This document shows, piece by piece, positions 3,001 to 9,000 of a stretch of DNA of 9,267 nt. Position numbers: made by a program. Position 1 is the stretch's first letter. Each line of letters starts with the position of its first letter. Source of the stretch: a virus (Duplodnaviria > Heunggongvirae > Uroviricota > Caudoviricetes); the IMG/VR virus record IMGVR_UViG_2690316142_000005; one strand, written 5' to 3'.

Positions 3001-6000
3001 CGGGGTTGCTAATGGACGATGAGCAGTTTGATGAAATCAATATCGTTCGTGGTCAGCCAGTATCTGGTGGACGTCTGGGGGTGAAGATTTACCCCATAAT
3101 GCATGAAGAGCAGGTCAAAAAATGAAACTGGAAGATTTACCGAAATACTACTCCCCAAAATCCCCTTGCCTGACCGATGCATCGGCCTCAACGTCAAAAG
3201 ATGCGCTGAGTATCACTGATGTGATGGCCGCGCAGGGCATGACACAGAATCGGGCTGAGATGGGGTTTTCTGCGTTCCTGGGGAAAATGGGCATCAGTAT
3301 GAATGACAGGGCGCGGGCAACAGAATTACTGGCAGATTATGCACTCAGTCGGTGCGATCGTGTGGCGGCGTTGAGAAAACTTCCGGCAGAAATAAAACCG
3401 GTAGTGATGCGCATTATGGCTTCGTACGCTTTTGAGGATTATGCCCGCAGCGCAGCGAGTAAAAAGCAGTGCCCTTGTTGCTATGGGGAAAAATTTATTG
3501 AAAGCGTAGTTTTTACAAACAAGGTCCAGTATCCGGATGGTAAGCCGCCGGTATGGGCAAAGTGTACGAAAGGTGTGTATCCGTCTTACTGGGAAGAATG
3601 GAAAAAAGTCAGGGAGGTGGTAAAAGTTGCCTGTCCGGAGTGTGGCGGAAAGGGTGAGGTTTCCACCGCCTGTAAGGATTGCCGTGGGCGTGGTGTCGCC
3701 ATTCATCGTGAAGAGTCGGTAAAACGTGGTATGCCTGTTATCAGAGACTGCCAGCGTTGTGGTGGTCGTGGCTATGAAAGACTACCATCAACGGAGGCAT
3801 TTAATGCTATATGCGAGGTGACAAACCAGATAACACGCGCGTCATGGGAAAAAACAGTTAAGAAATTTTATGATGCGCTGGTGACCCGGTTTGATATTGA
3901 AGAAGCATGGGCTGAGCGGCAGTTAAAAAAGGTAACTAGGTNNNNNNNNNNNNNNNNNNNNNNNNNNNNNNNNNNNNNNNNNNATGGGCGTTTTATGCCT
4001 GACGTTAGAAGAGTTTCTACAACCCGCCGCCGAGCGGGTTTTTTATGACTGAAATCGCGTCAGTACAGTAAACGCGCTGGTGGCGGTGAATACCTGTCTT
4101 TCAGCTTGCTGGCTTTTTCGACAAGAGTTATTGGTGTGTCACGTTAACCGGAAAAGGAAAAGACATGCTAAAACAGCAGGATATGACAGAAACCGCCAGA
4201 GTGGTGTTTAATGAATTAAGCGTTACCGAACCGGCGACAGTCGGGGAGATAGCGCAGAATACTTACCTTTCACGCGAACGCTGCCAGTTAATACTGACCC
4301 AGCTGGTTATGGCGGGTCTGGCAGACTATCAGTTCGGTTGTTACAGACGCCTTCCGCAGTGAAGGCTTTTTTATTTGTGGTAAATGGGCGGCTGGTGGGT
4401 GTTAGGGGCACCCACCAGCCATCTGCTCATGCGTTGGGTTCACAAGCAAACCTCAGGCCCACTGCTTTGCGCAAAAGCAGAATGAGCCTATCAGAGACAG
4501 GCTTAATGATCCATGCTTAATACTGTAAAAATATCCAGTTGTGAGTTAATCAACGCCGACTGCCTGGAATTTATCCGGTCGTTACCCGAAAATTCTGTTG
4601 ACCTGATAGTCACGGACCCGCCGTACTTTAAAGTGAAGCCTGAGGGCTGGGATAACCAGTGGAAGGGCGACGATGATTACCTGAAGTGGCTGGACCAGTG
4701 TCTGGCGCAGTTCTGGCGGGTGCTGAAACCTGCCGGAAGTCTTTACCTGTTCTGTGGTCATCGCCTGGCATCTGATATCGAAATCATGATGCGTGAACGC
4801 TTCAGTGTGCTGAACCATATTATCTGGGCGAAGCCGTCCGGACGCTGGAACGGATGCAACAAGGAAAGCCTGCGGGCGTATTTCCCCGCCACAGAGCGCA
4901 TTCTGTTCGCGGAACATTATCAGGGGCCGTATCGTCCGAAAGATGCCGGGTATGCGGCGAAGGGCAGTGCACTGAAACAGCATGTGATGGCCCCGCTGAT
5001 TTCTTACTTTCGTGATGCGCGAGCTGCCCTGGGGATAACGGCAAAACAGATTGCAGATGCCACAGGAAAGAAAAACATGGTGTCGCACTGGTTCAGTGCC
5101 GGTCAGTGGCAGTTGCCGAATGAAAGCGATTATCTGAAATTACAGGCGCTGTTTGCCCGGGTGGCAGAAGAGAAGCATCGGCGTGGTGAACTGGAAAAGC
5201 TCCACCACCAGCTGGTGGATACGTATACCTCACTGAACCGGCAGTATGCGGAGCTGCTGAGTGAATATAAACATCTGCGGCGGTATTTTGGCGTGACGGT
5301 GCAGGTGCCGTATACCGATGTGTGGACGCATAAACCGGTGCAGTTCTATCCCGGGAAACATCCGTGCGAAAAACCGGCAGAAATGCTGCAGCAGATAATC
5401 AGCGCTAGCAGTCGTCCGGGTGACCTGATTGCAGATTTTTTCATGGGGTTGGGTTCGACAGTGAAAGCGGCACTGGCGCTCGGGCGTCGTGCAATTGGCG
5501 TTGAGCTGGAGACTGAACGTTTTGAGCAGACGGTTCGGGAAGTACAGGATTTAGTCAGCCAGAACGGATGATATTGAAGAATTAATTACGCGTCGTTATT
5601 ATGCGGCTCCCGGCCCTTTAGCTCAGTGGTGAGAGCGAGCGACTCATAATCGCCAGGTCGCTGGTTCAAATCCAGCAAGGGCCACCATCACAAACCGCCA
5701 TTAGCTTATCAGGAAGAGCAGACGACACGATAACAGGGTTGTTGGTGCGGGGGCGGGTCCCCGATGGCGGTCCATTATCGGTATTCAGCGTTGTTAGCTC
5801 AGCCGGACAGAGCAATTGCCTTCTAAGCAATCGGTCACTGGTTCGAATCCAGTACAGCGCGCCATATTCATTCTTCCAGATTCCTTCCGGCAGAGCCTTA
5901 TACTGAAATATACCTGGCTCAGGATATTGTTGAAAATATTTTATGTTTGTCAAAAATAAAAGTTCTGTTAAGTATTGATTGAGTGTTTGTTATACGGTCT

Positions 6001-9000
6001 AATGGTTTTTTCAGCATTAAATATTTATCATTCATATGGTGTGGGTAGAGTGAATATTGATGAGGCGTCGGGGTGTTTCATCCTTAGGCAGCGTATTGAT
6101 ATAGTCAATGCAGCACGAGCAAAGGCCTTCAGCCGTTTGACAGTTTTGTTCTGTACTCCTGATCGTCTTTCGGGAAGAGACGTTATTATTCTGAATAGTG
6201 ATGCTATACAGAGGGTTTGCGATGAGTTCATGGTTGCTAATTCAGAATTATTTGCTCTTGTTCAGGAGTACAACAGAATAGCCAGGACCTGTGGTATGGA
6301 TGAACTTCGGATTACTCATCTGGGGTAGATACATATCTGGATTATCACCTGTTACGGTAAAAAGTGATTGCTTACTGTTTTTGTGAATGGCATTGCAGCA
6401 GCCGGATAATGTCAGTGCTGGCTGACGGTGTGCTGGTGGCGGGTGTGGTGGTTGTTGCTTTCCCGTTGCTGAAAAAGAAAACGCCAGACTGTTAGCCGGG
6501 TATCAGTTAGCGGGAGAAATTTTTAAATACTTCACAATTCAGGCGGTTGACTGTTGTCTGGTTTGCGGGGAGTTTGTTAAAAGAAACTGGCATGGTGAAT
6601 CCCCCTGTGCGGAGGGGCAATCAGCGAGTAGGTATATGGGATAATCGCGGATTCAGGTGCTGGTACTGAATTCACCGGGAGGCACCCGGCACCATGCAAT
6701 GGCACATAGCGCCACTCTCCAGCCCCTCTCCGGAGGGGCTGTTTATATTGATTTTGTCAGATGTGANCACCCACCAGCCATCTGCTCATGCGTTGGGTTC
6801 ACAAGCAAACCTCAGGCCCACTGCTTTGCGCAAAAGCAGAATGAGCCTATCAGAGACAGGCTTAATGATCCATGCTTAATACTGTAAAAATATCCAGTTG
6901 TGAGTTAATCAACGCCGACTGCCTGGAATTTATCCGGTCGTTACCCGAAAATTCTGTTGACCTGATAGTCACGGACCCGCCGTACTTTAAAGTGAAGCCT
7001 GAGGGCTGGGATAACCAGTGGAAGGGCGACGATGATTACCTGAAGTGGCTGGACCAGTGTCTGGCGCAGTTCTGGCGGGTGCTGAAACCTGCCGGAAGTC
7101 TTTACCTGTTCTGTGGTCATCGCCTGGCATCTGATATCGAAATCATGATGCGTGAACGCTTCAGTGTGCTGAACCATATTATCTGGGCGAAGCCGTCCGG
7201 ACGCTGGAACGGATGCAACAAGGAAAGCCTGCGGGCGTATTTCCCCGCCACAGAGCGCATTCTGTTCGCGGAACATTATCAGGGGCCGTATCGTCCGAAA
7301 GATGCCGGGTATGCGGCGAAGGGCAGTGCACTGAAACAGCATGTGATGGCCCCGCTGATTTCTTACTTTCGTGATGCGCGAGCTGCCCTGGGGATAACGG
7401 CAAAACAGATTGCAGATGCCACAGGAAAGAAAAACATGGTGTCGCACTGGTTCAGTGCCGGTCAGTGGCAGTTGCCGAATGAAAGCGATTATCTGAAATT
7501 ACAGGCGCTGTTTGCCCGGGTGGCAGAAGAGAAGCATCGGCGTGGTGAACTGGAAAAGCTCCACCACCAGCTGGTGGATACGTATACCTCACTGAACCGG
7601 CAGTATGCGGAGCTGCTGAGTGAATATAAACATCTGCGGCGGTATTTTGGCGTGACGGTGCAGGTGCCGTATACCGATGTGTGGACGCATAAACCGGTGC
7701 AGTTCTATCCCGGGAAACATCCGTGCGAAAAACCGGCAGAAATGCTGCAGCAGATAATCAGCGCTAGCAGTCGTCCGGGTGACCTGATTGCAGATTTTTT
7801 CATGGGGTTGGGTTCGACAGTGAAAGCGGCACTGGCGCTCGGGCGTCGTGCAATTGGCGTTGAGCTGGAGACTGAACGTTTTGAGCAGACGGTTCGGGAA
7901 GTACAGGATTTAGTCAGCCAGAACGGATGATATTGAAGAATTAATTACGCGTCGTTATTATGCGGCTCCCGGCCCTTTAGCTCAGTGGTGAGAGCGAGCG
8001 ACTCATAATCGCCAGGTCGCTGGTTCAAATCCAGCAAGGGCCACCATCACATACCGCCATTAGCTCATCAGGAAAGAGCGCCAGCCTTCGAAGCTGGCTG
8101 CGCGGGGTTCAAGTCCCCGATGGCGGTCCATTATCTGCATCATGCGTTGTTAGCTCAGCCGGACAGAGCAATTGCCTTCTAAGCAATCGGTCACTGGTTC
8201 GAATCCAGTACAACGCGCCACACTTATTTTCCCTGGCTCGCTTTTGCGGGCCTTTTTTTTAAATGTCTCACAATTCAGACGGTTGACAGTTGTCTGTTTT
8301 GCGGGGAGTTTGTTAAAAGAAACTGGCATGGTGAATCCCCCTGTGCGGAGGGGCAATCAGCGAGTAGGTATATGGGATAATCGCGGATTCAGGTGCTGGT
8401 ACTGAATTCACCGGGAGGCACCCGGCACCATGCAATGGCACATAGCGCCACTCTCCAGCCCCTCTCCGGAGGGGCTGTTTATATTGATTTTGTCAGATGT
8501 GAGTAAACTCCTTATGGACTTTGTTGTTTTAGTCCATAAGGACATATTTGCAGAGTGCAACGGTTATTAAAGCATTCATTCAATACGTTATCTGTATTTG
8601 TAGGGCATTCCTGGCTATTTTTGATTGAATTCCAGAATGTTTTATTGAATGGTACTACGTTGTAAATGGTTACAGGTAGCACTTTGTTATTGAGCATGAT
8701 GCCTGTGTGAGTCAGTGTAAATATACTTTCAGGAGGTAAGAAAGCATCCGATTGATACCAGATTATTAATTTTATTTTACTCCATATGACTGAAAAAGAT
8801 ATTCCGCATGATGGCTGGATAACTGTATCAATCACAATCCACTTCATTTAGTTTCCTTGTTTATGCCTTGCTGGTGATGTTCTGAAAAGTATAAATGATA
8901 TTTTTGAATGTAAACCATAGAGCAGAATTATTTTTCTGATGTTGTTTATTGTTTATTTAAATGCAGGGTGGTTTATATCTCGTCTTGTAGTTTATCCATG

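Follow-up and report, generated by a model that had tools for sequence, protein, structure and literature searches.

What occupies the extra DNA that separates the phage tRNA cluster from the STnc100 small RNA (sRNA) gene in one of two prophage copies on the viral record IMGVR_UViG_2690316142_000005, and does any of it still work? The window (the whole stretch of DNA analyzed, 9,267 nucleotides (nt)) covers the nin/Q/late-promoter region of a Qin-like lambdoid prophage, as read from its gene order, and the tRNA-to-STnc100 stretch occurs in it twice. Our reading, to which we give a probability of about 60%, is that the 656-nt segment of copy 1 is a decayed three-gene accessory cassette lying in the stx2 slot of the prophage late operon, in which one gene, here called orf92, survives under selection, next to what is left of its former neighbors, tciA and tciB.

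Alignment of both copies showed that they are identical or nearly so up to the last tRNA-Arg (ending at 5864 in copy 1 and 8220 in copy 2) and that identity resumes at the block TTTTTAAAT...TCACAATTCAG (6521 and 8256), which is common to copy 2 and to other occupants of the slot. Between these points lie 656 nt in copy 1 (5865-6520) versus 35 nt in copy 2 (8221-8255), in good agreement with the initial annotation, which had set about 640 nt of extra DNA against a 36-nt terminator spacer. The copy-2 spacer contains an intrinsic-terminator-like hairpin, GGCTCGC-TTTT-GCGGGCC, followed by eight T residues (8235-8252). The AT-rich character ascribed to the segment is real but confined to its 5' half: GC content rises from 31% in 5865-6049 to 44% in the long open reading frame (ORF) and 51% in 6364-6495, the flanks having about 52-56%. 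At a coverage of at least 80%, the segment was found in 1183 of 5426 complete Escherichia coli genomes (22%), nearly all at ≥99% identity, and in a single phage record, mEp460_ev081. Of the 5426 genomes, 1015 have the short allele, marked by the copy-2 junction, and E. coli 55989 carries this empty form on the same backbone. The segment and its borders comprise the following features.

5612-5687, plus strand: tRNA-Ile2 (CAT), left border (ARAGORN, Rfam, and alignment; labeled tRNA-Ile in RefSeq)
about 5695-5780, plus strand: degenerate argN-like pseudo-tRNA, left border
5788-5864, plus strand: tRNA-Arg (TCT), left border
5865-6049, plus strand: AT-rich leader, with no intrinsic terminator
6050-6328, plus strand: orf92, GTG start, 92 amino acids (aa), the only intact gene of the cassette
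about 6329-6340: deletion joint just 3' of the orf92 stop
6336-6354, plus strand: tciA remnant, the last 19 nt or so of a TerB-domain gene
6364-6495, plus strand: tciB remnant, a 43-codon ORF with a GTG start (RefSeq WP_000562553.1, 'DUF3927 family protein')
6496-6560, plus strand: conserved 3' tciB flank followed by the junction block TTTTTAAAT..TCACAATTCAG..TTGAC (from 6521)
6561-6750, plus strand: STnc100 sRNA, right border (Rfam RF02076, 132 bits against a gathering score of 47); its terminator occupies 6720-6741

The last 60-80 nt or so of the leader are conserved with other orf92 loci. The middle tRNA of copy 1 has kept its acceptor ends, its central ~50 nt are replaced, and ARAGORN does not call it; copy 2 carries an intact argN (TCG) at 8054-8130.

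The 3' part of the segment reveals which genes were lost. The 43-codon ORF matched Pfam PF13064 (DUF3927) with 95.6 bits (cut-off 25, E = 1.7e-27) and phrog_1470, 'TciB-like', with E = 8e-13. Intact TciB proteins have 50-54 aa and two hydrophobic helices, and intact tciB starts at the stop of the TerB-domain gene tciA in JLK-2012, P1, E. coli Ceylon31, contig L012, and Citrobacter; intact tciA-tciB pairs were present in loci L003, L011, L012, L017, and L023 (the last from Ceylon31). In the window, this arrangement is gone, only about 19 nt of tciA being left, and the stretch TCTGGATTATCACCTGTTACGGTAAAAA, which spans the tciA end and the original tciB start region, matches JLK-2012 TCTGGAGAATCATCTGTGACGGTAAAAA at 24 of 28 nt (DNA alignment A8). 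The remnant is likewise not full length. Helix 2, SSRIMSVLADGVLVAGVVVVAFPLLKKK, is identical between the window and JLK-2012 TciB, as are nearly all of the C-terminal 28 residues; in place of helix 1, LVLAAILLFLVVAVDF, the remnant reads IAYCFCEWHC (protein alignment A7), because deletions of 11, 4, and 5 nt in tciB shift and then restore the frame (alignment A8). It was these small deletions that abolished membrane helix 1 of TciB, and the widely propagated entry WP_000562553.1 is a truncated remnant rather than a full DUF3927 member. Its tail is the 28-aa peptide MSVLADGVLVAGVVVVAFPLLKKKTPDC (ATG 6409-6495), which ends in KKKTPDC. No Shine-Dalgarno (SD) sequence was found ahead of either GTG 6364 or ATG 6409. 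A literature search returned no functional paper on DUF3927 or TciB.

A homolog of orf92 lies directly upstream of tciA-tciB in E. coli Ceylon31, contig L012, and Citrobacter braakii (orf92 38-39% identical). Since orf92, tciA, and tciB are adjacent in three loci, they constitute a conserved three-gene cassette, and orf92 is a previously unremarked, conserved upstream partner of the tciA-tciB module. The order in intact cassettes is orf92, an intrinsic terminator, tciA, and tciB. Between orf92 and tciA, Citrobacter has the terminator GGCTCGC-TACG-GCGGGCC-TTTTT, both 7-nt stem arms of which equal those of the copy-2 terminator while three of the four loop bases differ, and the Ceylon31 hairpin is also very similar to that of copy 2 (sites compared: window 8235-8252, L011 5330-5355, and L023 3810-3835).

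Decay of the cassette has taken several forms. Locus L013 has a stop codon in its tciB remnant and an intact orf92, and in the type B clade the tciB remnant is ridden with indels and orf92 is open. In L024 (E. coli Ecol_AZ155, 2900-3080), tRNA-Arg (TCT) is truncated in the anticodon loop and fused to about codon 9 of tciB; the fusion, an independent deletion in the same slot, yields a 38-aa ORF annotated as 'DUF3927 family protein'. In copy 1 of the window, a single deletion took the terminator and nearly all of tciA. The most economical layout that accommodates these alleles consists of the tRNAs, a first bay with or without orf92, the terminator, a second bay holding nothing, stx2AB, or tciAB, and STnc100. 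Both bays would be empty in copy 2, and copy 1 would carry orf92 followed by a deletion running from just past its stop through the terminator and tciA into tciB.

Could the two surviving frames still act together? On such an account, orf92 and the truncated TciB would cooperate as a reduced cassette, the single-helix peptide serving as a membrane anchor or sensor. The synteny of orf92 with tciAB down to 38-39% identity would agree with this, as would a remnant frame that is open in most copies, is named in RefSeq, and has a C terminus so close to that of JLK-2012 TciB. We nevertheless regard it as improbable: helix 1, the native start, and the translational coupling to tciA are all gone from the remnant, neither of its possible starts is preceded by an SD sequence, it is interrupted in L013 and the type B clade where orf92 is intact, and even in intact cassettes a terminator divides orf92 from tciAB. 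In terms of the decayed cassette that we favor, the 43-codon ORF is most likely a nonfunctional scar, some residual function being conceivable, and orf92 would no longer require TciA or TciB.

The orf92 coding region is part of a longer open frame of 117 codons (5975-6328). The gene belongs to the family phrog_2873/phrog_4827; its match to phrog_2873 extends across the entire length (E = 4e-70 with the long frame, 6e-58 with the 92-aa form), and each of the nine aligned relatives hit phrog_2873 too. The start was placed at GTG 6050 because homologs of about 60% identity (P0014-P0019 and P0024) align only from (V/M)NIDE onward, with differing indels upstream of that point; divergent homologs share this GTG/ATG start position. 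The phrog_2873 profile is 108 positions long, versus 92 aa here, because gene callers picked the upstream ATG at 6002. Ahead of the start, AGGAG-TAGA is found in L012 and L023 and GGG-TAGA in the window, and RefSeq annotates a 92-aa homolog, WP_047671475.1, in L023. Conservation, the SD sequence, and the RefSeq call in L023 thus support the 92-aa form.

Comparison across three clade pairs (68-72% nucleotide identity) revealed no indel or stop in the 276 nt of orf92, and substitutions fall mainly at the third codon position (40-43, versus 19-24 at the first two positions). The Nei-Gojobori ratio of nonsynonymous to synonymous substitution rates (dN/dS) was 0.22-0.26 in frame versus 0.86-1.2 in shifted frames, values that refer to the older history between clades. 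By these sequence measures, orf92 is a protein-coding gene under purifying selection; it is intact and has outlasted the decay of tciAB in the lineages described above.

Several observations weigh against the decayed-cassette reading. The full order of tRNAs, orf92, terminator, tciAB, and STnc100 was not seen in any single locus, the layout being pieced together from several. Since the 1183 copies are nearly all at least 99% identical, selection within the allele is not measurable, and the ratios given above speak for the earlier period. The SD sequence of orf92 in the window is weak (GGG), and the RefSeq/NCBI pipeline left the gene uncalled in the inspected type A and type B loci and in every row of two match tables. 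A consensus scan for a dedicated orf92 promoter gave 8 weak sites, no excess over the 5.5 ± 2.3 of shuffled sequence, the best of them on the minus strand and none convincing. The tciB remnant ORF, for its part, is intact in most sampled copies.

Some of these same points would be expected if the whole segment, orf92 included, were functionless DNA of a defective prophage, with orf92 conserved only through the recent spread of one allele. Decay is visible nearby in tciA, tciB, and argN, the copies are nearly uniform, and orf92 combines a weak SD sequence with a GTG start and the missing RefSeq call. Recent spread would not readily account for three clades that differ at 28-32% of nucleotides and still show an uninterrupted orf92 with the dN/dS contrast described, beside a tciB remnant and flanks that are ridden with indels; nor would it readily account for the retention of orf92 in at least four different local contexts. 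We therefore consider loss of function of the entire segment unlikely, though less so than the reduced cassette, and retain the reading of a decayed cassette with one selected survivor.

The AlphaFold2 model of the orf92 product (predicted local distance difference test score 84, predicted template modeling score 0.72) featured two helices, residues 3-35 and 50-81, with the most conserved motif, TPDR, in the loop between them. The protein is acidic (isoelectric point 5.1-5.7) and lacks membrane segments. Its shape would suit a small module for binding other proteins, perhaps a dimeric four-helix bundle; the product would then be a cytoplasmic antiparallel two-helix hairpin serving as a small modulator or adaptor, not an enzyme, toxin, or membrane protein. 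From the model we infer, weakly, that it probably works by binding another protein.

Homology searches yielded few relatives. Fold searches returned generic antiparallel hairpins only, and a profile search of 1.84 billion representative proteins gave only 20 relatives, all small unnamed enterobacterial or phage proteins. The best hit in a profile search of the PDB (E = 0.05, GapR-like UPF0335) was judged not significant. No match to orf92 was found in Pfam, NCBIfam, or PADLOC, none of the nine relatives matched Pfam, and PADLOC was also negative for the tciB remnant, intact TciA, and intact TciB. Among 50,697 phage records, tblastn detected orf92 in mEp460_ev081 only, and for the phrog_2873/phrog_4827 family no Pfam family, structure, or literature was found.

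Three candidate relationships were rejected. The small helical connector proteins encoded near iraM in K-12 (YcgZ, YmgA, and AriR) aligned with orf92 at an hhalign probability below 1%. A counterpart of P1 upl or of tciC was discarded, as upl lies on the opposite strand and tblastn found only mEp460_ev081. The neighborhoods of distant relatives (a GerE-type regulator, PapB with a fimbrial operon, and Mu-like baseplate genes) followed no consistent theme.

The initial annotation had proposed something different: a novel moron inserted in the terminator of the tRNA operon, carrying an orphan of about 110 aa and a 28-aa membrane peptide as toxin or phage-exclusion genes. Part of this description holds. 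The cargo is accessory DNA of atypical composition that is missing from the sister allele and from related prophages, it sits in the slot used for toxins by lambdoid phages (Stx2a phage F451 has stx2AB in the same position between tRNAs and STnc100), and a small ORF with a strongly hydrophobic helix is open in most copies. The ~110-aa frame exists, as the 117-codon frame, but the gene within it is the 92-aa form; the 28-aa peptide exists too, but as the tail of the 43-codon ORF, with KKKTPDC rather than KKK at its end.

The claims of novelty fared worse. Each ORF falls into a family already described, NCBI lists the identical 92-aa sequence as a hypothetical protein, and a segment carried by 22% of complete E. 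coli genomes is hardly new. The initial annotation had itself held that homology to a known disrupted gene would speak against it, and the peptide is such a fragment: it derives from the 3' half of tciB and is preceded by debris of tciA. The supposed remnant of the terminator at 6500-6525 has the letters GCGGG...TTTTT but forms no stem; it belongs to the 3' flank of tciB, which is 91% identical to JLK-2012, where CCCGT replaces the GCGGG of the window. Insertion of the cargo into the terminator is contradicted by the composite layout, since the homologous hairpin sits inside intact cassettes, between orf92 and tciA, and was deleted rather than split in copy 1. Similarity to toxin or defense proteins was not detected by PADLOC, Pfam, NCBIfam, or fold searches, and the 'promoter element' noted after the cargo is the STnc100 sRNA with its terminator. 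Homology thus largely refutes the proposal of a novel toxin or defense moron, which is mostly wrong and which we hold to be the least probable of the accounts weighed here; its assignment of the slot was right.

If the cassette has decayed around orf92, how might the gene be expressed? In strain 300709 (L010, 3342-3445), the stretch right after the Q stop holds TTGATT-16-TAAATT, AACGAT, and a GC hairpin with a T-run, elements that we take to match lambda pR', the sigma-dependent pause element, and tR'. A run of N at 3942-3983 masks the equivalent stretch of the window. A late transcript from such a lambda-like pR', antiterminated by Q, would cover the methylase, the tRNAs, orf92, STnc100, and the lysis genes, so that orf92 would be expressed as stx2 is; from the gene order we infer that orf92 belongs to this transcript. 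A second source of transcription may be the following element.

5574-5602, plus strand: sigma-70-like promoter of the tRNA cluster (TTGAAG-17-TATTAT with a GC-rich discriminator), located by consensus scan, function putative

The site is repeated upstream of copy 2 (7933-7961). No intrinsic terminator lies between tRNA-Arg and orf92 in copy 1, and because the terminator after the tRNAs is lost, read-through from the tRNA promoter may also drive orf92 in lysogens with this allele. A conserved -10-like hexamer, TATCAT (6026-6031; TATAAT in L009), lies 19 nt before the orf92 start and is a candidate only, kept as a lead.

In lambdoid prophages, the stretch between tRNAs and STnc100 serves as a recombination-prone cargo bay, one that delivers Shiga toxin in E. 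coli strains that produce it (STEC), and a catalog of its further contents shows how cargo is gained and lost there. We observed it empty, with stx2AB, with tciAB, with orf92 and the tciAB scar, and with an AraC-like regulator and orf92. In the last arrangement, found in 80 genomes, mostly STEC, the slot holds an AraC-family (HTH_18) gene of 241 aa, followed 90 nt downstream by a type B orf92. At these loci (L008 3969-5062 and L009 164-1257), RefSeq calls the regulator only.

Altogether, orf92 is present in more than 1200 of the 5426 complete E. coli genomes. Beside the 1183 long-allele copies, types B and C account for about 130 loci. A bolder form of our reading would make it a working prophage gene in the Shiga-toxin slot of roughly a quarter of E. 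coli genomes, its hairpin binding and modulating some protein of the host or the phage (such as a regulator of transcription, a factor in stress or lysis timing, or a component of defense) independently of TciA and TciB, and overlooked as annotation usually skips it. We advance this only tentatively, as a possibility less likely than the decayed cassette with orf92 as its selected survivor. The yield is modest, namely a selected, mostly unannotated 92-aa gene carried by about one in four complete E. coli genomes, and current understanding is not overturned; as the remnant of a moron the segment is ordinary, and its one unannotated gene is of modest interest.

Around the two copies, the window is organized as follows.

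783-958: sok (Rfam, 112 bits) of a hok/sok locus, in the left part of the window
1686-2744: DUF968 gene
2745-3125: rusA
3122 to about 3940: antiterminator Q gene, entering the N-run at 3942-3983
between Q and the DNA methyltransferase: a 65-aa ORF
4513-5571: DNA methyltransferase
downstream of the methyltransferase: the tRNA cluster, the 656-nt segment, and STnc100
after the copy-2 STnc100: an IraM-like gene on the minus strand, then the start of a DUF1737 gene

The hokD/sok type I toxin-antitoxin locus spans 783-1108 and includes a 70-aa ORF (896-1108) that is Hok-like toward its C terminus. The IraM-like anti-adaptor (111 aa, 8512-8847, minus strand; NCBIfam NF007393, E = 5e-48; phrog_4407) has very AT-rich surroundings just 3' of STnc100 and is a further accessory gene of the Q-to-lysis region.

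Past a single N at 6767, the window repeats from position 4409, with the methylase, three tRNAs, the terminator, and STnc100 (8297-8486); 4409-5690 and 6768-8049 are exact repeats. Real genomes run directly from STnc100 to the IraM-like gene. In strain 300709, the order is hokD, DUF968, RusA, Q, the 65-aa ORF, methylase, tRNA-Ile, tRNA-Arg, the segment, STnc100, IraM, DUF1737, and holin, which is the arrangement of the window minus copy 2. This carrier is recorded as NZ_CP025903 (1542610-1543280), and strain 64 is another. Because the junction between the copies (6600-6950, spanning the N at 6767) was absent from all 5426 complete E. coli genomes, the tandem is probably an assembly artifact, a mis-join of two prophage alleles; a private duplication is a conceivable source. 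The two copies are best regarded as alternative alleles of a single prophage module. The window ends (2-34 and 9235-9267) also form a perfect 33-nt inverted repeat, and homology to E. coli genomes ends at 9237, leaving a final ~30 nt that do not derive from the prophage; this terminal repeat looks like an adaptor or assembly-graph artifact.

How does the segment compare with known occupants of the slot between the phage tRNA cluster and STnc100? Stx2a phage F451 has ileZ-argN-argO, stx2A, stx2B, and STnc100 in this order, the sRNA being located 75 nt after stx2 (PMC12370729), and in JLK-2012 the tRNAs are followed by tciA, tciB, and STnc100. The stx2AB genes of Stx2-converting phages thus resemble the segment in lying after ileZ-argN-argO and before STnc100 in a Q-dependent late operon, whereas Shiga toxin has no sequence or fold relation to the segment products. 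Homology to copy 2 in these phages runs through the terminator (to about 8258) with stx2A beginning just after; the Stx2 phages keep the tRNA-operon terminator upstream of their cargo, unlike copy 1. STnc100, which occurs twice in the window (6561-6750 and 8297-8486; RF02076, 132-134 bits), bounds the cargo slot in both Stx2 phages and JLK-2012. Locus L004 has two cargo units in tandem, each ending in STnc100, which suggests that STnc100 and its flanks serve as recombination anchors.

The tciA-tciB(-tciC) module of P1 and JLK-2012 is the closest relative of the 3' part: the 43-codon ORF belongs to the same DUF3927/phrog_1470 family, the tciA end is still recognizable upstream of it, and in both phages the module adjoins phage tRNA genes downstream of a DNA methyltransferase. 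The P1 tci genes are non-essential and were named by homology only (PMC10695390). The window differs in that tciA is deleted and tciB lacks the first membrane helix, and orf92, a full-length match to phrog_2873 of the phrog_2873/phrog_4827 family, has no homolog in P1 or JLK-2012 by tblastn. Lambdoid morons such as bor, and cspB/cspF in Qin, are likewise accessory genes of atypical composition between Q and the lysis genes that are absent from sister prophages. The segment, present or absent on otherwise collinear backbones and with 31-44% GC versus 52-56% around it, fits this general notion of a moron; unlike them, the copy-1 allele, with its terminator deleted and no clear promoter found, does not look like a self-contained promoter-gene-terminator unit.

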